Of a DNA stretch of 64,000 nucleotides, positions 44,365-63,801 are shown piece by piece. Each line of letters begins with the position of its first letter. Position 1 is the stretch's first letter. A model generated the notes under the pieces. That model saw nothing but the letters and a program-made list of their open reading frames with translations, did no database searches and was not told the origin of the DNA. A program made the translations under genes and the position numbers. Source of the DNA: a plasmid; sequence record NZ_CP017041.1; one strand, written 5' to 3'.

Positions 44365-44429
44365 ATGCGTAGTATTTCTATTGTCAACACCAAGGGTGGG
44401 GTTGGGAAGACGACCACGGCGGTCTACCT
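44365..44429 (+). pseudogene. parA: 5' fragment of a parA gene (MRSISIVNTKGGVGKTTTAVYL) interrupted by IS copy 1
   Basis: Walker A KGGVGKTT. Continuation (ATALAAQYRVVLLDADPQGS...) found after IS copy 2 at 63285. Confidence 0.65.
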
Positions 44430-44477
44430 AGGGTGTGTCTCCTATATGTGAGGTGAGGGTCGCGAGATACTGGCGGG

Positions 44478-44894
44478 GTGAATGAGAAGTCTCGGTTTGA
44501 GGCGATGACGGATGAGCAGTGGGAGCGTGTGGAGCCCCTGTTGCCAACGAACTGTGGGCGTCGGGGTCGCCCGTTCTCGAATAGTCGGATGATCGTCAAC
44601 GGGATCATCTACCGCTACAGGACGGGGATTCCTTGGAGAGACCTGCCTCGTGAGAGGTATGGGCCGTGGCAGACGGTGTGGAAGCGTCACCGCTCCTACG
44701 CGAGGCGGGGCGTGTGGGATTGTGTCCTTTTTCAGGTGGTGGCCCAAGCGGATTCGGCTGGGAAAGTGGATTGGACGGTCAGCATTGACGCCACGATCAA
44801 CCGTGCCCACCAACACGCCACGAACACGACGCGCCCCGACCAGGACACGGGGGGCTTCATCGAACTACAAGAATTCTCCGCTGGGCGAGGATGA
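44478..44894 (+). CDS. IS5-family transposase OrfA
   Basis: N-terminal HTH-type region typical of IS427-group orfA. Identical copy at 62362. Confidence 0.75.
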   Translation: MNEKSRFEAMTDEQWERVEPLLPTNCGRRGRPFSNSRMIVNGIIYRYRTGIPWRDLPRERYGPWQTVWKRHRSYARRGVWDCVLFQVVAQADSAGKVDWTVSIDATINRAHQHATNTTRPDQDTGGFIELQEFSAGRG

Positions 44895-45388
44895 GCCTGC
44901 AGGTCACGGCATTGGACGCTCGCGCGGGGGGGTTGACCACGAAGATCCACCAGGTCGTGGACGGCAACGGGCGTCCCTTGGCCATGGTCGTCACTGGAGG
45001 CCAGCGCAACGACGGCGCGATGATGCAGGACACCTTGAAGGACATCTACGTCCCCAGGCCCACCGGCAGGCCCCGCACCACACCCGACACGGTCATGGCG
45101 GACCGGGGCTACACGTCGGGCGTGAACCGTGAATACCTTCGAGATCACCACGTCAAGGCAGTGATCCCCCAGAAGAAGAACGAGATCGCCTCCCGGAAGA
45201 AGAAGGGCTCCAAGGGAGGCCATCCACCCGCCTTTGACGCAGAGGCATACAAGGGACGAAACGTCGTGGAACGCTCCTTCAACAGCGTCAAACAGTGGCG
45301 TGGTCTGGCCACCAGGTACGACAAGCTTGCCGTCACCTACAGGTCAGCCACAGTCCTACACGCCATCCTCCAATGGCTCCAAATATAG
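44891..45388 (+). CDS. IS5-family transposase OrfB (DDE domain)
   Basis: DDE-containing C-terminal part (MADRGY...SFNSVKQWRGLATRYDK). Identical copy at 62775. Confidence 0.75.
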   Translation: MSLQVTALDARAGGLTTKIHQVVDGNGRPLAMVVTGGQRNDGAMMQDTLKDIYVPRPTGRPRTTPDTVMADRGYTSGVNREYLRDHHVKAVIPQKKNEIASRKKKGSKGGHPPAFDAEAYKGRNVVERSFNSVKQWRGLATRYDKLAVTYRSATVLHAILQWLQI

Positions 45389-45469
45389 GAGACACGCCCT
45401 AGACCCATTGACCCCTATCAACCCTGTTAGTACTGTCAGAGTCAATAGTATCAACCCAAGGAGGAACCC

Positions 45470-45640
45470 ATGAGCTACATCACCCGCACCGGAAACCTGG
45501 CCGGCGCCCCCGAGCTGCGCGAGGGAGAGCGTGGCCCGTACACCTACGCCCGCGTCATCGTGTCCGACCGCATCCGCCAGGAGGACGGCAGCTACACCGA
45601 CGGACCGGCGGCAGCCGATTCGTCGGCACCGCGCCCCTGA
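45470..45640 (+). pseudogene. ssb: Truncated ssb-like gene (56 aa N-terminal fragment)
   Basis: RBS AAGGAGG. MSYITRTGNLAGAPELRE...YTYARV resembles the SSB N-terminus (GNL..DPELR). Flanked by palindromic GTCAATAGTA / TACTATTGAC motifs. Confidence 0.4.
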
Positions 45641-45671
45641 CAGTACTATTGACACTATTGGAGGTATCACC

Positions 45672-46470
45672 GTGACCGCTCAAATCTTCGCCCTCTGCAA
45701 CCAGAAGGGCGGCGTCGGCAAGTCGACGACGACATTTCACCTGGCCCGCGCCGCGGTGCTGCGCGGCCAGCGCGTGCTTGTGGTCGACAACGATCCCCAG
45801 GGGAACCTGACGTCCGTCGCGGCCGCCGAGCCCGTCGGGGAAGACCAGGCAGGACTGGCCGACGCGCTCAGTGCGCGCGCGCCCGAGACCATCCGCGACG
45901 TGATCGTGCCGGGAGTCTGGCCCGGCCTCGACGTCGTGCCGACGTCGGGAGTCACGCTCGGCTACGTGCGCGACGAGACTCGTGATCGCCGGGGCCGGCC
46001 GAGAGGGCCGGCTGCGCGAGGTCCTGGCCGCCGTCGCTGGCGACTACGACGTGATCCTGATCGACTGCGCACCGAGCCTGGACCAGCTCACGATCAACGG
46101 CCTAACGGCCGCGCAGGGCGTCGTCGTTGTGACCCACTCGAAGCTGTGGAGCGCGAATGGCTTGGCGCAGCTGCTCGACACGATCGAGAGCGTGCGCGCC
46201 TACTACAACCCCGAGCTGTGCGTGGCGGGCATCATCGTCAACCAGCACGAGGAGAACACCGTCAGCGGAAAGACCTGGCTCGGCGAGCTGGCCCAGGCCG
46301 CCGAGTCCCGAGGGCTGAGCGTGCTCAGCCCTCCGATCCCGAAGCGCGTCGTCATCGCAGACGCCACCGAGGCCGCGCGCGGCCTCGACGAGTGGGGGAG
46401 TGCCGAGGCGACCGCACTCGGCCAGCTTTACGCCGACCACCTGACCAGTATCGAAGGAGTCCTGTCATGA
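45672..46470 (+). pseudogene. parA: parA with apparent frameshift near 45965-45985
   Basis: N-terminal part in one frame (GTG start, CNQKGGVGKSTT). C-terminal part (GDYDVILIDCAPSLDQLTINGL...) in another frame (ORF 45982..46470). Confidence 0.6.
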
Positions 46471-46844
46471 ACCGCCCATCCCCCCGCAAGTCCTCACTGA
46501 GCGGATCGAGCCCGGTCGCCCCGCCGCCGGCAGAGACGCCCGAGACGAAGCCGACACCGGCCGCGCCCGTCACGCGCAAGGCCGAGGAACCGTCGACGAG
46601 CGGCAAGAAGAAGTGGCGGCACAAGGTGTCGTTCTACCAGGACCCGGCCGACACCGACCGGGTGCGAGGAGCGATCCTGCACACGATGGTGCAAGAGGGC
46701 AACCGGAACCTGAGCCAGTTCGTCAACGACGCCGTGATGGCCAAGGTCGAGGAGCTGGAAGCCAAGTACAACCACGGCGAGCCCTTCCCCGCCGTGGGAG
46801 CCCGAGAGCTGCCCCAGGGCGGCGCGGCCGCCGCTGGCGAGTAA
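46467..46844 (+). CDS. ParG-like RHH partition protein
   Basis: Overlaps the parA stop. KKWRHKVSFYQDPADTDRVRGAILHT RHH-like segment. Confidence 0.5.
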   Translation: MNRPSPRKSSLSGSSPVAPPPAETPETKPTPAAPVTRKAEEPSTSGKKKWRHKVSFYQDPADTDRVRGAILHTMVQEGNRNLSQFVNDAVMAKVEELEAKYNHGEPFPAVGARELPQGGAAAAGE

Positions 46845-46850
46845 GAACCC

Positions 46851-47300
46851 ATGAAGGCGCGCGCCATCGCCACAGTGGCCCTGCTGGGCCTGCTGGCCGG
46901 GTGCGCACCGAGCACGTCGGCCGCCTCGACGGCGACCGTCACCGTCGGTACCCGCCAGTTCCAGGTGGAGGTCGCAGACACCGCGGACGAGCAACGAACC
47001 GGACTCAGCGGACGAGCCGAGGTGCCTGAGGGCACCGGAATGCTGTTCACGTTCGCCGGCCGCCAGGAGCGGCAGGTGTGGATGGCCGGCATGCAGACCC
47101 GGATCGACGCGGCATGGATCGTCGATGACCAGGTGCTCGCCGTCGAGACCCTGGACCCGTGCACGATGACCGATCAGAGCATGTGCCCGCGCTGGACGTC
47201 GCCTGGCGACGTCGACGCACTGCTGGAAGTCCCCGCCGGCGCACTCGAAGGTGTGCCGGTCGGAGAGACCGTCACCATCCGAGAGGACACCCCATCATGA
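46851..47300 (+). CDS. DUF192-family lipoprotein
   Basis: Lipobox LLAGC. FQVEVADTADEQRTGLSGR...GMLFTF...VWMAGMQTRIDAAWIVDDQVL pattern of DUF192/COG1430. Confidence 0.5.
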   Translation: MKARAIATVALLGLLAGCAPSTSAASTATVTVGTRQFQVEVADTADEQRTGLSGRAEVPEGTGMLFTFAGRQERQVWMAGMQTRIDAAWIVDDQVLAVETLDPCTMTDQSMCPRWTSPGDVDALLEVPAGALEGVPVGETVTIREDTPS

Positions 47301-47713
47301 CCACGACGACCGCCGACGCGCTGCGCGCCTGGGCGAAAGGCATCTACCCGAGTGAGGCCGGCGTCGAGCTGCTGATCCGGTCCGGGCGAGCCGTCTACGA
47401 CGGCGCACCCTGGATCACCCGAGACGGCGACATGGCATGGATCGACGTCGACGAGCTGCTGCGCGAGACCGGAGCCTGGTCGGGAGGAGAGCGACGCCTG
47501 GTGCGCATCGCCGCGTCGCTGCTGGGCGGCCCCGCCGTCGACCTGTCCGAGGACGTGCCCGGCCTCGACCGTCAGGCGGCCGCCCTGGTGCTCGCTGCCA
47601 TCGCACACGCCAACGGCTCGCACGAGCACTCAGAGTTTCAGTTCAACGAGGACGGCACACCGCGAGGCTTCTCGCGGGTGCCCACGCTGTATCCCTGGCC
47701 AGAGACCCGATAG
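47298..47713 (+). CDS. Hypothetical protein
   Basis: Internal start MTTTTADALRAW of ORF 47159..47713. Confidence 0.3.
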
Positions 47714-47737
47714 CGCACTACCCGAGGAGATGCGGCA

Positions 47738-47971
47738 ATGGCCACGAAGTGCCCACACTCAGACGTCGACGTCAACGGCTACTGCTACGCATGCGGAGCC
47801 TACGTCGAGGGCCGCGACGCCGGCGCGGCGATCGCGGCGCTGTTCCCGGAGTTGTACGAGGCCGTGACCGAGCGGCCGGCCTGGCTGGATGCCAAGAGCG
47901 ACGGCCCGATGGCCGACGCGCTCCGACCGCTGCGCGAGGCGTCGCAGGACGAGGACGGCGAGGACCGGTAA
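47738..47971 (+). CDS. Small Cys-containing hypothetical protein
   Basis: CPHSDVDVNGYCYACG motif. Confidence 0.25.
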   Translation: MATKCPHSDVDVNGYCYACGAYVEGRDAGAAIAALFPELYEAVTERPAWLDAKSDGPMADALRPLREASQDEDGEDR

Positions 47972-48201
47972 CGATCGTTTACGGCGCCCAGGCAGCGGGA
48001 CCGTTGCAACGCCCGCGCAAACGTCGATCGGAATCGCGTTTCGGAGGACGTTTACGGCAGCTGGTAGTCAGGCGCGCAGCGCCTGACGCTGTTCAGGTAC
48101 GGCCACCAGTGATGATGGCTTCGGGGTGCCACTTGAGCATGTACTGGAACAGGGGATCGAGGATAGAAATAGTGGCTTCTCGGTCCTGTCCCTTTACCGG
48201 C

Positions 48202-48500
48202 TCATCCGAATCCAGGGTGTAGTCGGGGTCTGAACCCGCCGGTCTCGAGCAGGGATCTGGCGATGTAGTTGGTCAGGTTGCGGAACCCCAGCGCCGAGCC
48301 GCGCAGGTGCTCGAGCCTGCCGTTGATCGCCTCGGTGGGCCCGTTGGAGGTGCTGGGCCGGTCGAAGTAGGCCAGCACGTCGGCGGCGCGCTTCTTCAGC
48401 GTCCTGCCGAGCTTGGTGATCTCGACCAGGGCCTTGGGGACGCCGGTGCTGATCGAGTCGATGAGCCGGGCCATCAGCTCGCGGCCGTGGCGCCGGTTCT
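48202..48500 (-). pseudogene. 3' fragment of an ISL3-family transposase
   Basis: ...TNGPTEAINGRLEHLRGSALGFRNLTNYIARSLLETGGF matches the ISL3 transposase C-terminus. The upstream part of ORF 48202..49266 is out-of-frame noise. Confidence 0.5.
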
Positions 48501-48690
48501 CGTGGCGGTAGGCGGCGATCATGGGCTGGTAGACGCTCCGTGACCTCGACCTGGGCGTCGTCGGCGAGCAGGGTGTCCAGTCGGTCCTTCTGCTTGTCGT
48601 TGAGCAGGTCGGCGCCGTTACCGCTGCCGCACCGACCAGACGCATGTCTACAGGGAATCCGCGCCCATCGACGACCTGGTCGAAGACCTC

Positions 48691-49140
48691 ATGGTCAAGG
48701 CCCTGCGCAAGGTCGAGATGAGGGCCCTGTTGGCACCCGCCGCGCCCGACGTCGATGCGGCCGCCATCCAGCGGGAGTTGGCCGACATCGACGCCAAGAG
48801 GATCCACTACGCCACAATGCTGGCCGACGACGAGATGGACGACGCTCAGTTCAAGGCCGCCAACAAGCGGCTCGCCGCGCGTCGCGCGGCGTTGGAGGAG
48901 CAACTGCCAGCCCCGGTCTCCCCGGTGGCCCAGCGCATTCTCGATGTGCCCCCGGAGACCGTGGCCAACGAGTGGGCCCTGCTCGACCAGGACGAGAAGC
49001 GGGCCCTGATCGACGCACTGTTCACTATCGAGCTGGCGGCCCCCGGCACCAAGGAGAACGCCTACAAGGACTGGCGGAAGAGGATCGTGAACCCCGAGAC
49101 GGTCATCGTGACGCCGAAGCAGCAGGGTAAGGTTGCTTAG
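48691..49140 (+). pseudogene. Probable C-terminal fragment of a large serine recombinase (coiled-coil region)
   Basis: Helical segment IQRELADIDAKRIHYATMLADDEMDDAQFKAANKRLAARRAALEEQL. Lacks an N-terminal catalytic domain. Confidence 0.3.
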
Positions 49141-49651
49141 GTGTTTCGCATCGACGGTCGAACAGCGACCAACCCTGCTTGGTGAGGCGATAGCACTTGC
49201 CAAAGACGTCGGCCAGCTCGACCAGGTCGCCACCCGCCGCGAACTCGGCCATGCCCCCGCCGACATGCTGGGTGAGGGTGCTGCGGCCCACCAGCTGCCA
49301 CGTCAGGGCGTGGGCGTCGCCGCTCATCAGCCGCCACAGCAGGCGCACGTCCAGAGCAGCGCTGGGGCTGAAGACCACTTCGGCGGCTGCCCCCACAACA
49401 GTGGTCACGTTCAGTGCCTGCTTCTTGGTCAGGCCCGCAGCATCGGCCCACCTCGACCTGGCCTCTGTCCGACGGTGTCGCATGTGCTCGCGGGAATCCA
49501 GCCAAGAGCCGGCCTCCGGGTGGGTGCGATCCACGTATGGCTCGAGATCATCGCCGTACTGCAGCGCCCGCTTGTAGAACTCGTCAACCACCCGCAAAGC
49601 CCGCTGCTGGCGATCCACTGGGACATCGGGCGCCAGCACCCAGACCGCCAT
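49103..49651 (-). CDS. Hypothetical protein
   Basis: ORF only. Confidence 0.25.
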   Translation of the reverse strand: MAVWVLAPDVPVDRQQRALRVVDEFYKRALQYGDDLEPYVDRTHPEAGSWLDSREHMRHRRTEARSRWADAAGLTKKQALNVTTVVGAAAEVVFSPSAALDVRLLWRLMSGDAHALTWQLVGRSTLTQHVGGGMAEFAAGGDLVELADVFGKCYRLTKQGWSLFDRRCETPKQPYPAASASR

Positions 49652-50145: not shown

Positions 50146-50286
50146 GGTTCCTTCTTGGGTTGATCGTTCTAGCGAATGGGTTGGGGTTGGACGTTCGCGG
50201 GGGCGGTCGCCCGGGGTCGTGTGGTTGGCCGGGTCACTGGGTGGGTGGTGTGGTGATGGGCGCTCCTGTGGGGGTGAGAAGGCTGG

Positions 50287-51378
50287 TCAGTGCTGGCTGT
50301 CGACGGGGTAGCGTTTGCGCAGCCAGAGGCTGATGTAGACGAGTCCGATGAGGGCCGGGACCTCGATCAGGGGGCCGACGACGCCGGCGAGGGCTTGGCC
50401 GGCGGTGACACCGAAGGTGGAGATGGCGACGGCGATGGCGAGTTCGAAGTTGTTGCCGGCGGCGGTGAAGGCGAGGGTGGTGGTGCGTTCGGAGCCCAGG
50501 TGCAGACTCCGTCCGAGCAGGTGGCCGATGCCCCACATGACCGCGAAGTAGACCAGGAGCGGCAGGGCGATGCGGACGACGTCGAGGGGGCGGCTGGTGA
50601 TCTGTTCGCCCTGCAGGGCGAACAGCACGACGATGGTGAACAGAAGCCCGTACAGCGCCCAGGGGCCGATCTTCGGCAGGAAGCTGTGCTCGTAGGTTTC
50701 GCGGCCCCAGGCGTTCTCGCCCAGGGTGCGGGTCAGGTATCCGGCGACCAGCGGGATGCCGAGGAAGATCAGGACGCTCTTGGCGATCTGCCAGGCGGAG
50801 ACGTTCAGGCTGGTCTGCTCGAGGCCGAGCCAGGAGGGCAGGGCGGACAGGTAGAACCAGCCGAGCGCGGCGAAGGCGACGACTTGGAAGATCGAGTTGA
50901 TCGCGACGAGCACGGCGGCCGCTTCGCGGTCACCGCAGGCCAGGTCGTTCCAGATGATGACCATGGCGATGCAGCGCGCGAGCCCGACGATGATCAGGCC
51001 GGTGCGGTAGGTGGGCAGGTCGGCGAGGAAGGTCCATGCCAGCGTGAACATCACCAAGGGACCGACGACCCAGTTCAGCAGCAGGCTGGAGACCAGCATG
51101 CGCCGGTCGTGGGTGACGGTCCCGAGCCGGTCGTATCGGACCTTGGCGAGCACCGGGTACATCATCACGAGCAGCCCGATGCTGATGGGCAGCGAGACGC
51201 CGTCCACCTCGACGGCGGCCAGCGCCGTGCCGATGCCGGGGACGACACGGCCCAGCAGGAGCCCGACGACCATGGCCGCGAGGATCCACACGGGCAGGTA
51301 GCGATCGAGCGTGGACAGCTGCTGCGCCACGGGCGTCCGGGTCGGTGTGGACGGTGGTTCGGTGGTGATTACGGCCAT
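50287..51378 (-). CDS. acr3: Arsenite efflux transporter ACR3
   Basis: Start at MAVITTEPP. ACR3 signature LPISIGLLVMMYPVLAKVRY. 10-TM topology. Confidence 0.85.
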   Translation of the reverse strand: MAVITTEPPSTPTRTPVAQQLSTLDRYLPVWILAAMVVGLLLGRVVPGIGTALAAVEVDGVSLPISIGLLVMMYPVLAKVRYDRLGTVTHDRRMLVSSLLLNWVVGPLVMFTLAWTFLADLPTYRTGLIIVGLARCIAMVIIWNDLACGDREAAAVLVAINSIFQVVAFAALGWFYLSALPSWLGLEQTSLNVSAWQIAKSVLIFLGIPLVAGYLTRTLGENAWGRETYEHSFLPKIGPWALYGLLFTIVVLFALQGEQITSRPLDVVRIALPLLVYFAVMWGIGHLLGRSLHLGSERTTTLAFTAAGNNFELAIAVAISTFGVTAGQALAGVVGPLIEVPALIGLVYISLWLRKRYPVDSQH

Positions 51379-51666: not shown

Positions 51667-53061
51667 TCAGGGTTGGGTGCGAGTGCTCGCTGGCTGGTGC
51701 TGGGTCACCCATGCCTGCGCGGCGATCTGGATGGCGTCCCAGGGCGAGCCCAGCGGCGGTGTGTAGGCGAGGTCGAGGTCATTGATGTCGGCCACGTCCA
51801 TGCCGTGGAAGAGCGCGGTGGCGTAGGTGTCGACCCGCTTGGCGGTCTCGGTGGTCAGGTGCCCGACGAGCTGGGCACCTAGCAGCCTGCCGGTGGCGCG
51901 GTCGCCGGTGATGCGGATGGTGATGGGGTGGGATCCCGGGTAGTAGGCCTTGTGGTCGTCGGGCGCCGAGGTGGTGCTGGCGGGGTCGAACCCGGCGGCG
52001 ATGGCTTCGTGCTCCCGCAGCCCGGTGCGGGCTGCGACCAGGTCGAACACCTTGAGCACCTGGGTGCCGATGCTGCCCGCGAATCGGGCGTTGCCGCCCA
52101 GCGCGTTCTCGCCGGCGACCCGTCCCTGTTTGTGGGAGGTGGTGCCCAGTGGGAGGTAGGTGGTGCCGAGCAGGCGATGGTGGGTGGCCACGCAGTCGCC
52201 GGCGGCCCACACGTGTGGCAGGCCGGTGGCCATCGTCTCGTCGACGAGCACCGCACCGCGGGGCCCTGTCTGGGCTCCAGATCGGACGAGCAGGTCGGTC
52301 TCGGGGGTGACACCGACCACGACCAGAACGAGGTCCACATCCCACGACAGGGCTTCGCCGTCTCTGGCCTGACCGGTCACGTGCAGGCCGTCAGCACCCT
52401 TGGCTATGCCGGTGACGCTCGTACCGGTGTGGATATCGACCCCGTGCCGCACGAGTTCGGCATGGACGAGGGTACCGAGTTCGGGGTCGAGGGTGGACAG
52501 TACCTCGGGGGCGGCCTCGACCTGGGTGACGTGGATGCCGCGGGTGGTGAGGCCTTCGGCCATCTCCAGGCCGATGTAGCCGGCGCCGACAACCAAGGCG
52601 GTGCGCGGCTGCAGCTTCTCGAGGGAGTCGCCCAGGGCGAAGGTGTCGCCCATGGAGTGCAACAGGTGGACGCCGTCGGCGGCGCCGAGGGTGTCGAGTC
52701 CGGTGATCGGGGGACGCACGGGCCGGGCGCCGGTGCCGACCACCAGCGCGTCGTAGTCGACCAGGGCGGGGGTGTCGTCGGGTCCGATGGCCTCGAGCTG
52801 ACGGGCGTCGACGTCGATGCGGGTGGCGCGCGTGTCGAGCAGCAGGTGCAGGCCCGCGGCCTCCAGGTCGGCGCGGGTGCGGTGTGCCAGGTGGTGCCAG
52901 TCTCCGACCTCGCCGGAGATGTAGTAGGGGATCCCGCAGATGGAGAAGTTCGGGTAGGCGTCGGCCACCACGACGGTGACCTCGGTCGACGGGTCGAGTT
53001 CGCGGGCACGCAGCCCCGCGGAGATGCCGGCATCGCTGCCGCCGACGCACACAACGTGCAT
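51667..53061 (-). CDS. FAD-dependent pyridine nucleotide-disulfide oxidoreductase (CoA-disulfide reductase/NADH oxidase-like) in the ars locus
   Basis: GxGxxG VVCVGGSDAGISAG. Single redox Cys in SICGIPYY. Second NAD-binding motif VVGAGYIGLE. Confidence 0.75.
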   Translation of the reverse strand: MHVVCVGGSDAGISAGLRARELDPSTEVTVVVADAYPNFSICGIPYYISGEVGDWHHLAHRTRADLEAAGLHLLLDTRATRIDVDARQLEAIGPDDTPALVDYDALVVGTGARPVRPPITGLDTLGAADGVHLLHSMGDTFALGDSLEKLQPRTALVVGAGYIGLEMAEGLTTRGIHVTQVEAAPEVLSTLDPELGTLVHAELVRHGVDIHTGTSVTGIAKGADGLHVTGQARDGEALSWDVDLVLVVVGVTPETDLLVRSGAQTGPRGAVLVDETMATGLPHVWAAGDCVATHHRLLGTTYLPLGTTSHKQGRVAGENALGGNARFAGSIGTQVLKVFDLVAARTGLREHEAIAAGFDPASTTSAPDDHKAYYPGSHPITIRITGDRATGRLLGAQLVGHLTTETAKRVDTYATALFHGMDVADINDLDLAYTPPLGSPWDAIQIAAQAWVTQHQPASTRTQP

Positions 53062-53088: not shown

Positions 53089-53436
53089 TCAGCCCAGCAT
53101 GGCGAGGTACTCGTGCAACGCGGCCAGCCCTTCGGGTCGCGGGGTGAAGTGCGCCCACTTGCCGCGCATTTCCTTGTCCACCAGCCCGGCCTCGACCAGC
53201 TTCTTCAGGTGGTGTGACAGCGTCGGCTGGGTCACGCCGAACACCTCGGGCATGTGGCACGCGCACACGCTGGAGCACCGGCTGGCCGCGATGTGGTGCA
53301 GGATCCGCAGCCGCACCGGGTCAGCGAGCGCCTTCACGACGAGCGCAACCCGTTCCGCCTGCTCCATCGAGATCGTGCCACCACCCGGCGCGCAGGCCTC
53401 GGCGGCGGCCATCGGGGCTTCCAGCAGTTCGGTCAT
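53089..53436 (-). CDS. arsR: ArsR/SmtB-family metalloregulator
   Basis: HTH LADPVRLRILHHI. Metal-site Cys cluster SRCSSVCAC. Confidence 0.8.
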   Translation of the reverse strand: MTELLEAPMAAAEACAPGGGTISMEQAERVALVVKALADPVRLRILHHIAASRCSSVCACHMPEVFGVTQPTLSHHLKKLVEAGLVDKEMRGKWAHFTPRPEGLAALHEYLAMLG

Positions 53437-53548: not shown

Positions 53549-53971
53549 ATGCCCGTCATCCGTGTCTTCGAACCTGCACTGTGTTGCAACACCGGGGTCT
53601 GCGGCCCCGACCTCGACCAGGAGCTGGTCGACTTCACCGCCGCGGTCAACGCCCTCAAGGCGCAGGGGGTGGACGTCCACCGCGCCAATCTGGCCAGCGA
53701 GCCGGCGCAGTTCGCGGAGCACCCCGTGGTCGTCAAGTTCCTGCAGGCCGCCGGCTCCGAGGGGCTACCCCTGACGCTGGTCGACGACGTCACCGTGCTG
53801 GCCGGCCGCCACCCGCGCCGCGACGAGCTGGAGCGCTACGCCGGCCTGAACCCGACGAAGGACGCCCAGCCCCAGGGCGGATGCTGCGGCCCGCAGCAGG
53901 AAGCCCCCGCCGCGTCCACTGGCTGCTGTGGGCAGCCCGCCACTACCAGCACCGTGTCCGGCTGCTGCTGA
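53549..53971 (+). CDS. arsD: ArsD arsenical metallochaperone/repressor
   Basis: MPVIRVFEPALCCNTGVCG with the vicinal Cys pair. Cys-rich C-terminus. Confidence 0.8.
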   Translation: MPVIRVFEPALCCNTGVCGPDLDQELVDFTAAVNALKAQGVDVHRANLASEPAQFAEHPVVVKFLQAAGSEGLPLTLVDDVTVLAGRHPRRDELERYAGLNPTKDAQPQGGCCGPQQEAPAASTGCCGQPATTSTVSGCC

Positions 53972-53993: not shown

Positions 53994-55757
53994 ATGGTGA
54001 TGACCCAGTTTCTCGACAACCCGCCCCGGCACTTTTTCTTCACTGGCAAGGGCGGTGTCGGCAAGACCAGCATCGCGTGCGCCACGGCCGTGCACCTCGC
54101 CCACCAGGGCAAGCGGGTGCTGCTGGTCAGCACCGACCCGGCGAGCAACATCGCCCAGGTGTTCGGTGCCACCATCGGCAACAAGATCACCCCAATTCCG
54201 CAGGTGCCCGGCCTCGACGCGCTGGAGATTGACCCCGACGAGGCCGCTGAGGCCTACCGCAACAAGATCCTGGAACCGGTGCGCGCGGTCCTGCCCATCA
54301 AGGAGATCGAGGCCATCACCGAGCAGCTGTCGGGCTCCTGCACCACCGAGATCGCCTCGTTCAACGAGTTCACCGACCTGCTCGCCGACACCCAGGCCAC
54401 CGCCGGCTACGACCACGTCATCTTCGACACCGCCCCCACCGGCCACACCATCCGCCTGCTGCAGCTGCCCGGCAGCTGGACCAGCTACCTTGACAACGGC
54501 AAGGGCGACGCGTCCTGTCTGGGGCCCATGAGCGGGCTCGAGAAGAACCGCGCCACCTACCGCGCCGCCGTCGAGGCCCTCACCGACCCCACCAGCACCC
54601 GCCTGGTGCTCGTCGCCCGGGCCCAGCAGTCCACGCTGCGCGAGGTCGCCCGCACCCTGGACGAGCTCGCCGAGCTCGACATCCACGCCACCAACCTGGT
54701 CGTCAACGGCGTCTTGCCCGCCGTGGCCGCCACCGACGACCTGTCCCGCGCCATCCACGACCGCGAACAGGCCGCGCTCGCTGCCATGCCTGCCGCCCTG
54801 GCAGCCCTGCCCCGCGACACGGTGAGCCTCAAGAGCGTCAACATGGTCGGCCTGGAGGCACTCGCCACCCTGTTCCACGACGAGGACGCCCCGCAGGCCG
54901 ACGCGCAGGACACCGGCGGGCAGGGCATCGGCCAGCAGCCGCACCTCGCCGGCCTGGTCGACCAGCTCGCCGAGGCCGACCATGGGCTCGTGATGACGAT
55001 GGGCAAGGGCGGTGTCGGCAAGACCACCGTCGCAGCCGCCATCGCCATCGCCCTGGTCCAGCGCGGCAAGAAGGTCCTGCTCACCACCACCGATCCCGCC
55101 GCGCACCTGTCGACCACCCTCGGCAACGACGTCGACGGGCTCGAGGTCAGCGCCATCGACCCTGAGAAGGCCATCCAGGAGTACCGCGACCACGTCATGG
55201 CCTCCAAGGGCGCCAAGCTCGACGACGCCGGCCGCGCCGCCCTCGCCGAGGACCTCATGAGCCCCTGCACCGAGGAGATCGCCGTCTTCCAGCAGTTCAG
55301 CCGCGCCGTGAACAAGGCCCGCGACCAGTTCGTCATCATGGACACCGCCCCCACCGGCCACACCCTGCTCCTGATGGACGCCACCGGTTCCTACCACCGC
55401 GACATCACCCGCCACCTCGACGACGACCAGCGCGGCCACGTCACCACCCCGCTGATGCGGCTCCAAGACCCCGACCACACCAAGATCATCGTGGTCACCC
55501 TGCCCGAGACCACCCCCGTCACCGAGGCGCAGGCCCTGGCCAGCGACCTGGAACGCGCCAACATCCACCCGTGGGCGTGGGTCGTGAACAACTCCCTCGC
55601 GGCAGCCCACCCCACCAGCCCACTGCTCGCCACCCGCGCACGCTCCGAGCAACAGCAGCTGGACGCGGTGGCCGCCACCACCAACCGCATGGCCGTCATC
55701 CCCACCCAGACCCGCGAACCCGTCGGCACGCAACAGCTCACCGCTCTCAGCAACTGA
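53994..55757 (+). CDS. arsA: ArsA arsenite-stimulated ATPase (two homologous halves)
   Basis: Two P-loops FTGKGGVGKTS and TMGKGGVGKTT. DTAPTGH motifs in both halves. Confidence 0.9.
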   Translation: MVMTQFLDNPPRHFFFTGKGGVGKTSIACATAVHLAHQGKRVLLVSTDPASNIAQVFGATIGNKITPIPQVPGLDALEIDPDEAAEAYRNKILEPVRAVLPIKEIEAITEQLSGSCTTEIASFNEFTDLLADTQATAGYDHVIFDTAPTGHTIRLLQLPGSWTSYLDNGKGDASCLGPMSGLEKNRATYRAAVEALTDPTSTRLVLVARAQQSTLREVARTLDELAELDIHATNLVVNGVLPAVAATDDLSRAIHDREQAALAAMPAALAALPRDTVSLKSVNMVGLEALATLFHDEDAPQADAQDTGGQGIGQQPHLAGLVDQLAEADHGLVMTMGKGGVGKTTVAAAIAIALVQRGKKVLLTTTDPAAHLSTTLGNDVDGLEVSAIDPEKAIQEYRDHVMASKGAKLDDAGRAALAEDLMSPCTEEIAVFQQFSRAVNKARDQFVIMDTAPTGHTLLLMDATGSYHRDITRHLDDDQRGHVTTPLMRLQDPDHTKIIVVTLPETTPVTEAQALASDLERANIHPWAWVVNNSLAAAHPTSPLLATRARSEQQQLDAVAATTNRMAVIPTQTREPVGTQQLTALSN

Positions 55758-55830: not shown

Positions 55831-56616
55831 TCACCCGGCCTGTCGGGCTCGGGTGTGGGCGAGGCGGTAGGAGTTGGTGCCGGTTTCGATGATGGTGGCG
55901 TTGTAGGTGAGGCGGTCGACGATCGCGGCGCACAGGCGGGGGTCGGTGAAGGTGTCGGTCCAGGCGGAGAAGGACTGGTTGGAGGCGATCGCGATGGCGT
56001 TCTTCTCCTCGCGTTCGGCGCCTCGCCGGTCGAGTTCCATGTAGCCGAGCTCGTCAATGACGAGGAGGTCGACGCGGCCGTAGCGGTTGATGGTCTTGGT
56101 GAGTTGTTTCTCGTCGGCGGCTTCGACGAGCTCGTTCACGAGCCGGGTGGCGAGGGTGTATCGGACGCGGTAGCCCTGTTCGGCGGCGGCGGTGCCGAGT
56201 GCGATGAGCAGGTGGGATTTGCCGGTGCCGGAGTCCCCGATCAGGCACAGGGGGTCGCCGCGGCGGATCCAGTCGCCGGTGGCGAGCTCGTTGATGGTGG
56301 CGGGGTTGATGCTGGGGTTCGCGGTGAAGTCGAAGTCGGCGAGCCATTTCTCGCGGGGGAAGCCGGCGCTCTTGATGCGACGCAGGGTGGAGCGGCGGTC
56401 GCGGTCGTCGACCTCGGCCAGGAGGAGTTCGGCGAGGAAGCCTTGGTAGGTGAGTTGTTCCTTGGTGGCGGCCGTCACGGCGTCGTCGACGACGGCGCGG
56501 ATGGTGGGCAGCCGCAGCCGGCGGCAGGCCTGGTCGATCGCGGCCTGCGCGGCTTGTTCGGTCAGGCCCTGACGCCGGCGAAGGCTCGCGGGGCGGCTGG
56601 TGCTGGTGGTGGTCAT
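55831..56616 (-). CDS. istB: IS21-family helper ATPase IstB
   Basis: Walker A LIGDSGTGKSHL. Walker B LLVIDELGY. Confidence 0.8.
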   Translation of the reverse strand: MTTTSTSRPASLRRRQGLTEQAAQAAIDQACRRLRLPTIRAVVDDAVTAATKEQLTYQGFLAELLLAEVDDRDRRSTLRRIKSAGFPREKWLADFDFTANPSINPATINELATGDWIRRGDPLCLIGDSGTGKSHLLIALGTAAAEQGYRVRYTLATRLVNELVEAADEKQLTKTINRYGRVDLLVIDELGYMELDRRGAEREEKNAIAIASNQSFSAWTDTFTDPRLCAAIVDRLTYNATIIETGTNSYRLAHTRARQAG

Positions 56617-57005
56617 GGGGTTCCTGTCGGGGTGTGGTGGTGAGTCTCGGCGGGGGCCGGGGCGGGATCGGGTTGGCGTCGACGCAGGAGTTCGTCGTAG
56701 GCGGTGACGGTGGGCAGGGGCCGGGTGTCCTCGGGCAGGTGCGCGATGACCTGGTGCGGGTTGGTGGGGCGTCGGGGTGGCAGGTTCACGACCGTCCCGC
56801 CCCTGGTCGGGCTGGCTGGGGCGGGTGTGTGGGTGGTGGCATGGCGGCGGGCTTCGACGGCGACGGCGTCGGGGCTGATCGCGCCCACCGACAGGGCCGA
56901 GGTGATGCCGGCGATCACCGCGTCGGACGGGAGGGATCGGTCGATCTCGTCACAGGCTTCCAGCAGTGCTTGAGAGCCGCCGATCGCTGTCCACAAGTGT
57001 TTCAC
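56613..57005 (-). pseudogene. istA: 3' fragment of IS21-family transposase IstA
   Basis: Overlaps the istB start. Ends ...LPTVTAYDELLRRR typical of the IstA C-terminus. No N-terminal DDE/HTH part. Confidence 0.45.
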
Positions 57006-57115: not shown

Positions 57116-57454
57116 ATGGCTTACCCGTACACCCTCACTCCCGTCGCCCGAGGCGTCCAGCTGCGCCTGCCCCACGTGACCTTGGCCGGCGACCTGGCCT
57201 ACGACCCCGCCTCGAGCGCGCTGGTTCTGATCCACGATGACGGTGAACACCACGTGCTCTCCACCGTCCTGCTCGCCTACGGCTACATGCCCTTCTTCGG
57301 CGAGACGTTCATCAAGGACTGGACGGAACACTCCGGTCTCACCGACACCCTGGTCATGGCCGGCGTGGTTACCGTCGTCGAGCGGCTGACCGTCGGCCCT
57401 TTCAACTCCACGGCCTACCGGGTCCGCGCGCGGCCTCGGTGGCGTCTGCGATGA
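57116..57454 (+). CDS. Hypothetical protein
   Basis: ORF only. Confidence 0.2.
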   Translation: MAYPYTLTPVARGVQLRLPHVTLAGDLAYDPASSALVLIHDDGEHHVLSTVLLAYGYMPFFGETFIKDWTEHSGLTDTLVMAGVVTVVERLTVGPFNSTAYRVRARPRWRLR

Positions 57455-57623
57455 CGACGCGCTTCGGGATCGGCGGGCTGAGCACGCTCAGCCCTCGGGA
57501 CTCGGCGGCCTGGTGCAGCTCGTCCAGCCAGGTCTTTCCGCTGACGGTGTTCTCCTCGTGCTCTTTATCCCGACGACAGTCAGTGTGTGGGGGATGATAC
57601 TTCGCCGTTCAGCTCGCTACTAC

Positions 57624-59112: not shown

Positions 59113-59304
59113 GGACTGAACTATACAGCGCGCACTGAACACTCGGTCACAGGCGTCAGCCCAGATCGCATGCCCGTAAGGGGATCCTCCACCGTACGTC
59201 GAGCGAGCTTCCTCCTCGACGACTCTTTACGAGGGATTGCCATGTACGGAAGACCCGTACGGTGATATGGGCGGTGAGGGGAGGGCAACTGCAACAATGG
59301 GCAC

Positions 59305-59877
59305 ATGCATGTCGGCTACGCGCGCGTCTCGACTCTCGAGCAAGACCTCTCCGCCCAACGGGAAGCGCTCGAGCGCCTCGGAGTCGAGAGCAAGAACATC
59401 TACTTCGACCACGGCCTGACCGGAACTACCCGCGCCCGGCCCGGGCTGCGCGAAGCGCTGGCCGCGACCCGGGAGGGCGACACCCTGGTGGTGACCAAGC
59501 TCGACCGGCTAGCCCGCTCCCTCCCGGACGCGAGGGACATCGCCGACGAGCTCACCATCAAGGGAGTCGCGCTCAGCCTCGGCGGCAGCGTCTACGACCC
59601 CAACGACCCCGTGGGCCGGCTGCTCTTCAACGCGCTCGGCATGGTGGCCGAGTTCGAGGCGGACCTCATCCGCCTGCGCACCCGCGAGGGCATGGCCATC
59701 GCCAGATCCAAGGGCAAGCTCAAGGGCAAGAAGCCCAAGCTCTCACCCTCTCAGCGCAAGCACCTCATGACCTTGCATACGGCTGGCGAGCACACCCAGG
59801 CAGAGCTCGCCGAGCTGTTCAACGTCTCCCGCACCACCATCTACCGCGAGCTGCGCCGCACCACGACCACCTCCTGA
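59305..59877 (+). CDS. Serine recombinase (resolvase/invertase family)
   Basis: MHVGYARVSTLEQDLSAQ catalytic Ser region. C-terminal HTH VSRTTIYREL. Confidence 0.8.
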   Translation: MHVGYARVSTLEQDLSAQREALERLGVESKNIYFDHGLTGTTRARPGLREALAATREGDTLVVTKLDRLARSLPDARDIADELTIKGVALSLGGSVYDPNDPVGRLLFNALGMVAEFEADLIRLRTREGMAIARSKGKLKGKKPKLSPSQRKHLMTLHTAGEHTQAELAELFNVSRTTIYRELRRTTTTS

Positions 59878-60061
59878 CCGCCCATGCCCCGCCACTGAGC
59901 GATCACAGAAGCCCGCCACTGAGCCATCAAATCCACATCGACGGAGACCGACACGCCGGACCGAAACCCTGGACCGAAACCTATACGGCCCAAAACTACC
60001 CCTAGACCGTTTTCGGGAAATCGACTAGAATGGACTTAGCACCGAGCGAGAGGAGCACCCC

Positions 60062-60259
60062 GTGGCCACCAAGACAGCAACCACCGCGACGACCGCGGCC
60101 GAGCGCGAGCTGCGCGTGGCCGAGGCGATCCACAGCGGCGAGATGGAGGGCCTGCCGGTGACGGCTGCCGGCCGCCAGGACGCCGCCGAGTACGTCGCCG
60201 GCCGCATCGACTCTGACGAGCTGGTGGCCCGCGCGCACGCACGCTATGGCCTCGACTGA
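60062..60259 (+). CDS. VbhA/FicA-like antitoxin
   Basis: Contains the inhibitory S-x-x-x-E-G motif (HSGEMEGL). Overlaps the fic start. Confidence 0.6.
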   Translation: MATKTATTATTAAERELRVAEAIHSGEMEGLPVTAAGRQDAAEYVAGRIDSDELVARAHARYGLD

Positions 60260-61040
60260 GTTCGTCGACCCGTATCTCGATCCCGAGACGGGTCTGCTGA
60301 GGAACAAGGTCGGCGCACAGACGAAGGTCGCCCTCGATGAAGCCGAGGGCGACCTTTCGTTTGCCCGTTTGGTGCAGCTCATGGATCACCCGGTGAAGCC
60401 GACCGGCGACCTCGACGAGCTGCGCGCGATCCACCGCCATCTGTTCCAGGACGTCTACGACTGGGCGGGGGAGCTGCGCACGGTCGACATTCGCAAGAAC
60501 GTGGAGGGAGCCCAGTTCTTCCTTCCAGTGTCGATGATCGGCCGCGCCGCCGGCTACGCCGAGGGCGAGCTGCGCGCCGACCACGAGCTGCGCGGCATGA
60601 GCCGCGAGCAGTTCATCGACCGCCTGGCGTACCACTACGACCAGTTCAACTACGTGCACCCGTTCCGCGAGGGCAACGGCCGGACGCAACGAGTGTTCTG
60701 GAACCGCGTCGCCCGCGACGCCGGCTGGCAGCTCGACTGGCGCGAGGTGCACGGCGCGACCAACGACCAAGCGAGCCGAGCGGCATCCGAGCAGCAGGAC
60801 TTCGGGCCGCTGCGCGAGATGTTCGATCAGATCGTCAGCAAGGCGACCCCGCAGGGTGAACGAGACGCCGCCTGGCGCGTCGCAGAGCGCGCCCGTCTGT
60901 CGTTCCCCACGAGTGCCACCGAGGCCGTGCGCCGACCCCAGAGCGTCCCGTCGAGCGCACCGCAGGCGCGCACCACCATGCACGTGCCAGGGCAGAGTCA
61001 CCGAGGGCCTGGCAACGACGGACCAGGAGCGAGCCGATGA
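60246..61040 (+). CDS. fic: Fic/Doc-family toxin (class I Fic, VbhT-like)
   Basis: Fic motif HPFREGNGRTQR. Confidence 0.8.
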   Translation: MASTEFVDPYLDPETGLLRNKVGAQTKVALDEAEGDLSFARLVQLMDHPVKPTGDLDELRAIHRHLFQDVYDWAGELRTVDIRKNVEGAQFFLPVSMIGRAAGYAEGELRADHELRGMSREQFIDRLAYHYDQFNYVHPFREGNGRTQRVFWNRVARDAGWQLDWREVHGATNDQASRAASEQQDFGPLREMFDQIVSKATPQGERDAAWRVAERARLSFPTSATEAVRRPQSVPSSAPQARTTMHVPGQSHRGPGNDGPGASR

Positions 61041-61209
61041 ACGATGACTACCGACTGTCACACCGCGCGCCAGGACCCGAGGGGGACGGCACGACGGTTC
61101 GACTCGACCAGGTTGGGGGAGAGTACGACGAGGTGTTTCCGGCCGACGTGGGACAGCACCCAGAGCGCTACGGTGCGCTGCACTCGACGACAGTCGACCA
61201 GGTGCCCGC

Positions 61210-61554
61210 GTGCGGGTCTGGCGCGCTGTCCCCGAAGGTGTGACCGCGATCAGTCCCGGCGATTGGGTGGCACTGTCCGAGAAGTACGCCCGAGCTGAGA
61301 GCCAGATCGAGCACGCCCAGGTCATCACCGCTACGGCCACCGCATCGGAGCTGTGGTCGGAAGGTCTGCTAGAGGAATGGGGATACCAGGGCACGGCACC
61401 GCTACGCGCCGAGCCAGCGGCCGCCGAGCGCCCGCTGAGCCGTGCCAGCTTCCCTCAGAGCGCGCGAGCGGCGGTCGCTTCAACACGGACCGCAGAGGCC
61501 CACACACAGGCCATGACGCGAGCTAACACGATCGGCCCGGAGGTGGGGCGATGA
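61210..61554 (+). CDS. Hypothetical protein
   Basis: ORF overlapping the resolvase start. Confidence 0.2.
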   Translation: MRVWRAVPEGVTAISPGDWVALSEKYARAESQIEHAQVITATATASELWSEGLLEEWGYQGTAPLRAEPAAAERPLSRASFPQSARAAVASTRTAEAHTQAMTRANTIGPEVGR

Positions 61555-62150
61555 CGAGTGTTGTCGGCTATGCGCGGGTGAGCACGCGCGAGCAGAACCC
61601 CGAGGCCCAGGAGGCCGAGCTGCGTGCGGCAGGGGCGACGCGAGTGTTTGTCGATCGTGGCGAGTCGAGCCGCGTCAGGGACCGGCCGCAGTGGATCGCG
61701 TGCCTGGACTATCTGCGCGACGGTGACACGCTCGTGGTGCGCCGGCTGGATCGCATCGCCGGCAGCGAGAAGATGGCCATCGAGACGATCAATGACTTAG
61801 CCGAGCGTGGTGTGAACATCCGGAGTCTGACCGAGCCGGACATCGACACGACAACCCCGATGGGTCGAGCCCTGTTCGGTATCGTTGCCGTGTTTGCTCA
61901 GCTCCGAGTGGACACGATCCGGGAGAACACCCGGCGCGGTTTGGAGCACGCCCGCGCCCAGGGGCGCGTCGGCGGTCGGCCCTCTGTGATGACCCCGAAG
62001 CGCGTCGCCGCTGCTGCGCAGATGCGCGGCGAGGGAAAGACCCTCGCGCACATCGCGGCAGTGCTCGGAGTCGGCAAGTCGACGGTGGCTCGCGCGCTGG
62101 CCAAGCTGGACGAGGAGACCCCGGAGCGGGTCGGAGCTGCGAAGCCCTAA
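61551..62150 (+). CDS. Serine recombinase (resolvase family) with C-terminal HTH
   Basis: VVGYARVSTREQNPEAQ. HTH GVGKSTVARAL. Confidence 0.8.
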   Translation: MTSVVGYARVSTREQNPEAQEAELRAAGATRVFVDRGESSRVRDRPQWIACLDYLRDGDTLVVRRLDRIAGSEKMAIETINDLAERGVNIRSLTEPDIDTTTPMGRALFGIVAVFAQLRVDTIRENTRRGLEHARAQGRVGGRPSVMTPKRVAAAAQMRGEGKTLAHIAAVLGVGKSTVARALAKLDEETPERVGAAKP

Positions 62151-62194
62151 CCGTTCTTCCTCCTTCCCCTGATAAATGCCGCCCTGCACAGGGC

Positions 62195-62260
62195 AGACCC
62201 CCGTCAAGGGCGCGGCGGAGCCGCATCACGTAGTGACGCGAAGCGCCCTTGACGGGGGTC
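62195..62260. repeat. Long inverted repeat (17-bp arms ACCCCCGTCAAGGGCGC / GCGCCCTTGACGGGGGT, 30-nt spacer)
   Basis: Seen directly, between the resolvase gene and IS copy 2. Candidate res site, terminator or transposon end. Confidence 0.4.
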
Positions 62261-62313
62261 TGAGCTGTGTGAGAATCACGGCGTCAGGGGGAGGGGGAAC
62301 CCTGCACCCAACT

Positions 62314-63284
62314 AGGGTGTGTCTCCTATATGTGAGGTGAGGGTCGCGAGATACTGGCGGGGTGAATGAGAAGTCTCGGTTTGAGGCGATGACGGATGAG
62401 CAGTGGGAGCGTGTGGAGCCCCTGTTGCCAACGAACTGTGGGCGTCGGGGTCGCCCGTTCTCGAATAGTCGGATGATCGTCAACGGGATCATCTACCGCT
62501 ACAGGACGGGGATTCCTTGGAGAGACCTGCCTCGTGAGAGGTATGGGCCGTGGCAGACGGTGTGGAAGCGTCACCGCTCCTACGCGAGGCGGGGCGTGTG
62601 GGATTGTGTCCTTTTTCAGGTGGTGGCCCAAGCGGATTCGGCTGGGAAAGTGGATTGGACGGTCAGCATTGACGCCACGATCAACCGTGCCCACCAACAC
62701 GCCACGAACACGACGCGCCCCGACCAGGACACGGGGGGCTTCATCGAACTACAAGAATTCTCCGCTGGGCGAGGATGAGCCTGCAGGTCACGGCATTGGA
62801 CGCTCGCGCGGGGGGGTTGACCACGAAGATCCACCAGGTCGTGGACGGCAACGGGCGTCCCTTGGCCATGGTCGTCACTGGAGGCCAGCGCAACGACGGC
62901 GCGATGATGCAGGACACCTTGAAGGACATCTACGTCCCCAGGCCCACCGGCAGGCCCCGCACCACACCCGACACGGTCATGGCGGACCGGGGCTACACGT
63001 CGGGCGTGAACCGTGAATACCTTCGAGATCACCACGTCAAGGCAGTGATCCCCCAGAAGAAGAACGAGATCGCCTCCCGGAAGAAGAAGGGCTCCAAGGG
63101 AGGCCATCCACCCGCCTTTGACGCAGAGGCATACAAGGGACGAAACGTCGTGGAACGCTCCTTCAACAGCGTCAAACAGTGGCGTGGTCTGGCCACCAGG
63201 TACGACAAGCTTGCCGTCACCTACAGGTCAGCCACAGTCCTACACGCCATCCTCCAATGGCTCCAAATATAGGAGACACGCCCT
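62314..63284 (+). mobile_element. IS5-family (IS427-group) insertion sequence, copy 2 (identical to copy 1, same orientation)
   Basis: Identical ORF translations and identical terminal repeats. orfA 62362..62778, orfB 62775..63272. Confidence 0.8.
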
Positions 63285-63801
63285 GGCTACGGCCTTAGCC
63301 GCTCAGTACCGGGTCGTCTTGCTTGACGCCGACCCGCAAGGATCGGCGACGTCATGGGCTACCGACGCTTTCGAAGCCGGTGACCAGTTGGACTTCGAGG
63401 TCCGCCCGGCTAATGCCCCCATTGTCAGGCGCTGCCGTGACATCGACGCCGACCTCGTCATCATCGACACTCCCCCCGGTGACTCTCAGACGATTACCGC
63501 AGCCCTCGACGTCGCCGATGTGGTCATCATCCCGACCGAGTCGGGGGACCTGGACATGGATCGAGCGCTAATGACCTATCAGGTGGCCCACGGCACGCGC
63601 CGGGCCCTGCTCTTCAACAAAGCCGATCGGACCAGGCAATACCGTGACGCCCACGACGGAGCCGCCGCCGTAGAGGGCCTCGACATTCTCGACGCGGAAG
63701 TTCATCGGCGGGTCGCCTATCGGCAAGCCATCGGAACCCGGCCAACAGATCTAGGAGAATTCGCCCAGGTTGCCGACCAGATCAAGGAGATGCTGAAGTG
63801 A
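63285..63801 (+). pseudogene. parA: 3' portion of the parA gene interrupted at 44429 (ATALAAQYRVVLLDADPQGS...EMLK)
   Basis: Joining 44365..44429 to 63285.. reconstitutes a continuous ParA ORF (...TTTAVYL|ATALAAQ...). Confidence 0.65.

Follow-up and report, generated by a model that had tools for sequence, protein, structure and literature searches.

Background

The chromosome of Cutibacterium acnes C1 carries an 18.8-kb 'unique composite transposon' that disrupts a hydrolase gene, and its insertion sequence (IS), which had no match in ISfinder, was termed novel (Minegishi et al. 2015, Sci Rep 5:9832, PMC4428272). The C1 transposon was later identified as an arsenic resistance island that lies between two transposase elements and is also present in PA_15_2_L1 and 5U42AFAA, and strain C1 was found to hold IS copies at 14 loci (Scholz et al. 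2016, Sci Rep 6:20662, PMC4746626). It had also been observed that every coding sequence in the C1 transposon has an identical counterpart in 'P. humerusii' (C. modestum) and other propionibacteria, and one study reported arsenic and cadmium genes in the plasmid-positive strain ESL8, the location not being given. Here we analyse 64,000 nucleotides of the plasmid record NZ_CP017041.1 (the window, to which all positions below refer), in which the plasmid partition gene parA is split by a block at 44431-63283 that has an IS at each end. We are confident that this block is a plasmid copy of the known 18.8-kb arsenic/cadmium composite transposon, which would have reached parA in a single insertion followed by recombination of the flank. 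The element has therefore already been described and its sequence has been public for years, but the parA site appears to be unreported; a literature search found no paper on insertion of the transposon into the plasmid parA, and public C. modestum drafts contain it.

Comparison with the chromosomal copies

The whole unit (44431-63283) is 18,853 bp long, with 16.9 kb of cargo between the two ISs, and exact-protein look-ups showed the block to be widespread. Over its full length it is 99.6-99.7% identical to the C1 copy, which lies at ~808.5-827.3 kb of chromosome CP003877.1 with an IS at both ends and is represented among the loci fetched for comparison (L numbers) by L123, matching the window at 44422-54905 (99.6-99.7%), and L090, matching 51575-63284 (99.72%). 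The copies between thiE and the kdp operon of CP114012.1 (L122/L089) and CP012352.1 (L128/L092), again with an IS at both ends, are equally close, and each spans ~18.8 kb from IS to IS. A fourth right flank, near the EF-Tu region, was found in L093 and L099. The IS-cargo-IS unit thus occurs with the same outer ends at the plasmid parA, at the C1 hydrolase site, at the thiE/kdp site and beside the EF-Tu-region right flank. As the unit is found with both of its ISs at three or four unrelated sites, and as an empty site is also available (see below), it is in practice a composite transposon.

The window and C1 copies share the two flanking ISs, the gene order, the size and the junction signature, and when their nucleotide sequences were compared no substantial difference in content from the C1 island was seen. 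They differ in location, i.e. parA of a linear tad plasmid here and the chromosome there (hydrolase PPA0735 in C1, thiE/kdp in PA_15_2_L1), and the window differs in having ~30-38 additional nt in the DUF192 gene, an extra A that frameshifts the transposon-borne parA (45978), an istB gene shortened by 24 nt, and a run of seven rather than six G residues in both ISs. Two of these features are private to the window: the extra A is absent from all 29 of the other loci that contain the region, and the istB deletion, which is in frame, was seen in no other locus.

The additional DUF192 nucleotides (46949-46978) are common to the plasmid-borne copies, which are ~30-38 nt longer at this point than the chromosomal copies and encode a protein of 149 aa as against 136 or 154 aa; DUF192 length tells the plasmid lineage of the transposon from the chromosomal one. 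The transposon also has a parA gene of its own, distinct from that of the plasmid. This gene is intact (265 aa) in most other copies, namely the plasmid-borne ones and C1 (L105-L120, L123), the window being the sole frameshifted plasmid copy seen. In the thiE/kdp lineage (L121, L122, L125, L127-L129) it is broken, giving fragments of 189-198 aa or no called gene.

A reading of the window made without database searches (the sequence-only reading) had described the block as a captured replicon fragment rather than a simple composite transposon. That description was not upheld, as the unit is present at two or more chromosomal sites, has been published as a composite transposon and has no recognisable rep gene. 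In the corresponding fusion scenario the block would be another, small plasmid that brought a partition system along and was joined to the tad plasmid by replicative transposition or by recombination at the IS. Such a history would account for the left 2 kb of the cargo, a plasmid partition region akin to those of Leifsonia, Corynebacterium and Glutamicibacter plasmids, and for the presence of two resolvases and a toxin-antitoxin pair, which are typical of plasmid maintenance. However, Pfam and NCBIfam recognised no replication initiator among the cargo open reading frames (ORFs), including the unassigned ones at 47297-47713, 48691-49140, 49103-49651 and 57116-57929; the ssb gene is a 56-aa stub, the IS21 and ISL3 elements are wrecked, and the same IS-cargo-IS unit sits at different chromosomal sites. 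With no replication gene found in the cargo and its plasmid-type genes partly wrecked, the cointegrate reading is unsupported, and we regard fusion of two replicons as very improbable.

The interrupted parA gene and its empty site

The features that define the insertion are as follows.

44365..44430, plus strand: 5' fragment of the plasmid parA, 22 codons (MRSISIVNTKGGVGKTTTAVYL), 99.7% colinear with L083 up to 44431
44431..45399, plus strand: IS copy 1, 969 bp, IS5 family, 100% identical to copy 2
62315..63283, plus strand: IS copy 2, same orientation and sequence as copy 1
63284..63801, plus strand: 3' part of the plasmid parA, coding from 63286 (ATALAAQYRVVLLDADPQ…, i.e. ATALAAQ…), stop at 63801
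63798..64000, plus strand: start of the parA partner gene, cut by the window end

Joining 44365-44430 to 63286-63801 yields a 193-aa ParA with a deviant Walker A motif (KGGVGKTT) at residues 10-17. The Pfam CbiA match extends over residues 4-171 and spans the junction at residue 22, and there are further matches to AAA_31, VirC1 and MipZ, those to CbiA, AAA_31 and VirC1 covering the protein end to end. Intact homologues with 91-97% aa identity are known (P0001-P0005; also L001 and L002). The proposal that the two pieces form one gene is therefore borne out by the in-frame product, the match across the junction and the intact homologues. To judge by its sequence, the interrupted gene is a type Ib ParA, i.e. 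small (the type has about 190-210 aa), with a Walker A motif of the deviant form KGGxGK[ST] and without an N-terminal DNA-binding domain.

A search for the uninterrupted locus was successful. Over 10.1 kb the metagenome contig L083 is 99.73% identical to window 34318-44431, and from the point that corresponds to 44431 it runs unbroken into window 63282-64000 at 95.7%. Its empty-site sequence reads TACCTAGCAACGG, and the site itself, a CTAG, reads GGTCTACCTAGCAACGG. The C. namnetense contig L001 has an identical CTAG at this position, where CTGGCT is found in L002 and in pKB17-24694 of C. modestum; the gene is intact in L001, L002 and pKB17-24694 (at 56996-57580 in the latter). The empty site and the in-frame join bear out the view that a single insertion split parA.

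The parA partner gene overlaps the parA stop and encodes 85 aa in L083 (10603-10860). It is weakly ribbon-helix-helix-like, with weak matches to such families (E=0.003-0.014) and a FitA-like_RHH match (E=0.0026) below the Pfam cut-off.

The two IS copies

A comparison of repeats within the window showed that the 973-nt stretch 44428-45400 is repeated at 62312-63284, 17,884 nt away, in direct orientation and with zero mismatches. This stretch consists of the 969-bp IS with CTA at its left and T at its right. There is no third copy of the IS within the 64-kb window. The sequence-only reading had correctly taken the two copies to be identical and directly oriented, although its boundaries (44430-45400 and 62314-63284, 971 bp) were one base off at each end. 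The terminal inverted repeats have the form GGG(T/C)GTGTCTCCTATAT, and the ends are the imperfect 17-nt inverted repeats GGGTGTGTCTCCTATAT and GGGCGTGTCTCCTATAT. Between them lie two reading frames (positions for copy 1).

44478-44894, plus strand: IS orfA, frame 0, Pfam DUF4096
44789/44891-45388, plus strand: IS orfB, -1 frame, open from 44789 to 45388; Pfam DDE_Tnp_1 and DDE_Tnp_1_2 in the transposase

The two frames overlap at ATGA, so that the transposase is split and is predicted from the sequence to need a -1 frameshift. The NCBIfam model for IS5-family transposases (NF033580) is matched by orfA at profile positions 4-111 and by orfB at 117-258, with scores of 117.5 and 131.3 bits that both exceed the curated cut-off of 110. 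The IS is a complete IS5-family element, with both ends and a complete split transposase, and these NCBIfam and Pfam matches confirm the family to which it had been assigned. Its probable placement in the IS427 group, whose members are 0.8-1.0 kb long and make 2-4 bp duplications of a TA-containing target, fits in the features that were tested (969 bp, 17-nt imperfect inverted repeats, a DUF4096 orfA with a -1-frame DDE_Tnp_1 orfB, and TA duplication in CTAG). Compared with the IS5-family elements of PLSDB plasmids the nucleotide identity is just 66-72%. Solo copies of the IS occur elsewhere, in L096 and L100.

Both window copies contain a run of seven G residues (44919-44925 and 62803-62809) at the point where the orfB-homologous part starts. 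The same run of seven is found in the solo and circle-type loci (L095-L104), and in all 29 loci retrieved through other genes the run has six. Seven G residues place orfB in the -1 frame relative to orfA and six place it in the +1 frame. The length of the run may act as an on/off tract for the transposase, or may reflect sequencing error in older assemblies.

An exact repeat of 969 bp is longer than short reads, and the IS copies could have been wrongly joined during assembly, in which case the cargo would not truly lie inside parA. Odd paths through the IS do get assembled, as in L003, which joins IS-parA3' to an unrelated 125-bp left flank. However, the parA5'-IS-cargo junction recurs in 15 loci that were assembled independently, among them 79-82-kb contigs of two NCBI isolate assemblies that run from the backbone through the IS into the cargo, and L094 has the cargo-IS-parA3' junction. 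Assembly collapse is unlikely because both junctions recur in independent assemblies, and a cargo placed in parA by assembly error is hardly conceivable.

Junctions and the mosaic right flank

We surveyed the flanks of the unit and of solo ISs in all of the loci fetched, which gave seven distinct left flanks and nine distinct right flanks. Each of the seven left flanks ends in CTA. The right flanks start with TAG in six cases, TAA in one and TGG in two (the window and L094). A solo IS of C1 has the flanks CCTCTA|IS|TAGAGG, the C1 transposon has CTTGCTA and TAGAGGAG, and the thiE/kdp copy of the transposon has CTAGCTA and TAGAGAAG. At the plasmid insertion TACCTA stands on the left; on the right L003 has TAGCAACGG, and both the window and L094 have TGGCTACGG. 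These flanks appear to fit a CTAG target of which the central TA is duplicated. In the window, 44429-44430 (TA, the last bases of the parA 5' fragment) is the left copy of the duplication and 63284-63285, where the right copy belongs, reads TG; the chromosomal copies thus have a TA/TA pair and the window has TA/TG.

The right flank of the window was aligned with the available parA alleles. At G63285 and T63288 the window agrees with the pKB17/L002 allele, at the sites that follow with L083, and at 63312 and 63316 once more with pKB17; past ~63570 the pattern is mixed. TG is therefore part of an allele-specific patch (TGGCT, shared by pKB17, L002 and L094) in an otherwise L083-like flank. Sequence identity to L083, 99.7% to the left of the transposon, drops to 95.7% on its right side. 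This pattern suggests that TG at 63284-63285 came from allelic recombination that reached the boundary of the insertion, rather than from a different duplication. In our preferred scheme the unit would have inserted once, its target being the CTAG at codons 22-23 of the type-Ib parA carried by a tad linear plasmid of the C. modestum lineage, duplicating the central TA and inactivating the plasmid ParA; the right plasmid arm would later have recombined with other parA alleles, producing the mosaic flank and overwriting the right TA with TG.

As a whole, the 3' part of parA and its partner gene (63284-64000) alternate over short distances between at least two plasmid alleles, one L083-like and one pKB17/L002-like.

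Insertion into a CTGG allele with duplication of TG was considered as a source of the right-hand TG and rejected: all 15 loci with the left parA junction read CTA, and G63285 travels with T63288.

Several observations weigh against a composite transposon that inserted once: (i) the 2-bp duplication is imperfect in the window (TA left, TG right). (ii) TA flanks are common to every insertion of the IS and discriminate little, so that the flanks are almost uninformative as to whether the two outer ends moved jointly, which cannot be proved from them. (iii) The transposon lies in parA beside three right-flank alleles (window, L094 and L003) and two left backbones (the window type and L098), so that either recombination after insertion or repeated insertion at a hot spot is needed. 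(iv) Six metagenome contigs (L095, L097, L101-L104) join the right end of the cargo to its left end through one IS. (v) Transposition from the two outer IS ends is putative, the case for it being made by sequence comparison. On point (iii), independent insertions into three parA alleles are less likely than one insertion followed by recombination, because the right flank is a patchwork.

The contigs of point (iv) run from resolvase 2 through the IS to the ssb stub and ParA, and they carry the chromosomal-type DUF192 variant. They could represent a 17.9-kb circle, a tandem array or, equally, the path of an assembler through the repeat.

These contigs bear on a different order of events, in which a solo IS was first to enter parA and a circle of the cargo with one IS, released from another copy of the transposon when its two ISs recombined, then integrated into the resident IS by homologous recombination, giving the same final structure and flanks. 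The cargo-right/IS/cargo-left junction that a circle or a tandem array would give is present in six independent samples (L095, L097, L101-L104), and solo insertions do occur, as in C1 with its many solo copies (14 loci, PMC4746626; L096). On the other hand, no contig with parA5'-IS-parA3' was found, and the 15 left-junction loci all continue into cargo; PA_15_2_L1 holds the island without any other copy of the IS (PMC4746626); the circle-like contigs can come from assembly through the repeat with low-coverage branches; and their DUF192 is of the chromosomal and not the plasmid type. We therefore consider it unlikely that the IS arrived first, and favour arrival of the complete composite transposon.

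Gene content of the cargo

The genes between the two ISs are as follows (family names and E-values are those of Pfam).

45470..45640, plus strand: truncated ssb, 56 aa, N-terminal OB-fold part; Pfam SSB E=0.0029, profile 2-45/104, below cut-off
45671..46470, plus strand: transposon parA, frameshifted by the extra A at 45978
46467..46844, plus strand: ribbon-helix-helix ParB, 125 aa; CB_ParB_C E=1.7e-23; predicted to bind a centromere as partner of the transposon ParA
46851..47300, plus strand: DUF192 protein
48202..49266, minus strand: ISL3-family transposase remnant, DDE_Tnp_ISL3, C-terminal part only
50287..51378, minus strand: ACR3 arsenite efflux permease, 363 aa; SBF 5e-59; named ACR3 family arsenite efflux transporter in the source records
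51667..53061, minus strand: pyridine-nucleotide disulfide oxidoreductase
53089..53436, minus strand: ArsR repressor
53549..53971, plus strand: ArsD metallochaperone; ArsD 3e-38
54000..55757, plus strand: ArsA ATPase, two halves; ArsA_ATPase 4e-101; 585 aa on other loci
55831..57005, minus strand: IS21 remnant, istB with the 24-nt in-frame deletion and the 3' end of istA
57419..57562, minus strand: inverted 144-nt duplicate of transposon parA 46244-46387 (repeat I1, 95% complementary)
58154-58756, minus strand: cadD cadmium transporter
58753-59112, minus strand: ArsR/SmtB regulator of cadD
59305..59877, plus strand: serine resolvase 1
60062-60259, plus strand: VbhA antitoxin
60246-61040, plus strand: Fic toxin
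61551..62150, plus strand: serine resolvase 2, exact protein in 3359 blocks of the public collection

All of the items that the sequence-only reading had listed for the cargo, i.e. a second, frameshifted parA, an ssb fragment, an ars locus, cadD with its regulator, two resolvases, Fic/VbhA and IS debris, were confirmed; arsenic and cadmium resistance would be the expected phenotypes. The gene that it had called parG-like does encode a small partition partner, which is now identified as a ribbon-helix-helix ParB of the CB_ParB_C family. This Pfam family was defined on the ParB of Leifsonia plasmid pCXC100. Like the type Ib ParA/ParB system of that plasmid, both partition modules of the window consist of a small Walker-type ParA gene and a short downstream gene, but neither is intact, one being split by the transposon and the other frameshifted. 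The ssb stub aligns with the annotated ssb of a Leifsonia plasmid (H30), the par/DUF192 arrangement is also found on Corynebacterium and Glutamicibacter plasmids (H11-H13), and the two halves of ArsA correspond to the internal repeats D2 and D3 of the window. An exact-protein look-up with the 182-aa ORF at 49103-49651 gave no match because the window has a private substitution, T49128, in it.

The inverted 144-nt parA duplicate lies 11 kb from its source and adjoins the IS21 remnant; it records an earlier rearrangement within the cargo.

Origin of the cargo

The G+C content of the block is 66-70%, above the ~62% of the backbone. At the nucleotide level the cad module is 96.6-98.7% identical to Microbacterium and Rhodococcus plasmids (H1, H18; PLSDB) and the par module is 76-82% identical to Leifsonia, Corynebacterium and Glutamicibacter plasmids (PLSDB). 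When PLSDB was searched with 44000-64000 no plasmid record was found to hold the block, and the matches were at the level of modules only, with at most 12% coverage per record. These results uphold the earlier suggestion that the cargo is a mosaic of resistance genes and plasmid-derived partition and resolution modules. The cargo would have been assembled earlier, in other high-G+C actinobacteria, out of plasmid pieces (the ssb stub, the Leifsonia-like pair of ParA and ribbon-helix-helix ParB, DUF192, the two resolvases and VbhA/Fic), and would also have gathered resistance modules (acr3, arsR, arsD, arsA, and cadD with its regulator) and the wreckage of IS21 and ISL3. The plasmid-type genes are best read as the history of the cargo and not as a live replicon.

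A variant of the cargo was found in L116 (ERZ28601107 scaffold_56, 1-16029), which has window 45349-56944 in common at 99.7% identity. Where the window has its IS21 remnant, this variant carries a complete IS21 with istA and istB, and two large unassigned genes (>424 aa and 700 aa, no Pfam match) replace the cad/resolvase/Fic end. This variant may be a precursor or a sister of the cargo.

The host plasmid

The window is part of a tad-type linear Cutibacterium plasmid and is closest to C. modestum pKB17-24694 (AP024748.1, linear), with ~99.4-99.5% identity over window 1-37867. With the tad plasmids of C. acnes (pIMPLE-HL096PA1 and its relatives) the first 35 kb share 87-92% identity over ~63-71% of that length. 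The backbone is shared with pIMPLE-HL096PA1, p15.1.R1 and pKB17-24694, and the arm with parA, its small partner and a toxin-antitoxin pair occurs in relatives, but those complete records have an uninterrupted parA and lack the transposon. For ACR3 and DUF192, the variants identical to those of the window come from sources named as C. modestum (including HL044PA1) and Propionibacterium sp. NM47_B9-13.

Two further features of the backbone were seen. At 22939-23815 a 296-bp unit is repeated three times in perfect tandem, and pKB17-24694 appears to have fewer copies. A 0.75-kb segment (7320-8077) shows 98% identity to L001 (C. namnetense, 159.5 kb) and L002 and 88% identity to a plasmid from Kocuria, and may represent a small mobile module that also occurs outside this plasmid family.

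Consequences of the insertion

These results show the known arsenic/cadmium transposon on a member of the family of tad linear plasmids, a family found in more than one Cutibacterium species, and make the tad plasmid a plausible vehicle by which the C1 transposon could have acquired its gene identity with 'P. humerusii' (C. modestum). The plasmid survives the loss of its native ParA. Of the plasmid lineage, the exact DUF192 variant is present in 962 blocks of the public collection and the exact ACR3 variant in 652, so that the interrupted plasmid is common and no dead end.

A more far-reaching possibility is that the insertion amounts to a swap of partition cassettes, in which the plasmid lost its own ParA and is now segregated by the complete module of ParA and ribbon-helix-helix ParB that the transposon brought in, and that a real 17.9-kb circle shuttles the cargo between plasmids and chromosomes of C. 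modestum and C. acnes. If true, the swap would explain why the transposon parA is intact in plasmid copies and decayed in the thiE/kdp chromosomal lineage. We regard this combination as rather doubtful.

In practical terms, an 18.9-kb insertion with exact 969-bp repeats will break short-read assemblies of these plasmids and can confuse plasmid typing, and such repeats can also yield chimeric or contaminating contigs. L003 (NZ_BMPW01000064.1), filed as Actinoplanes campanulatus, is an example: this 2.6-kb contig (1-2564) is made up of the IS known from Cutibacterium and the 3' portion of the plasmid-borne parA, and its 125-bp left flank has no match in the window, in any of the loci or in PLSDB. 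This contig is probably Cutibacterium contamination, and possibly chimeric. L002 (CBDDHW010000032.1, 21 kb), filed as a metagenome-assembled genome of Rhodospirillaceae, carries a parA of the Cutibacterium plasmid type (91% aa identity) and matches window 7320-7911 at 98%, and looks like a case of mis-binning or contamination.

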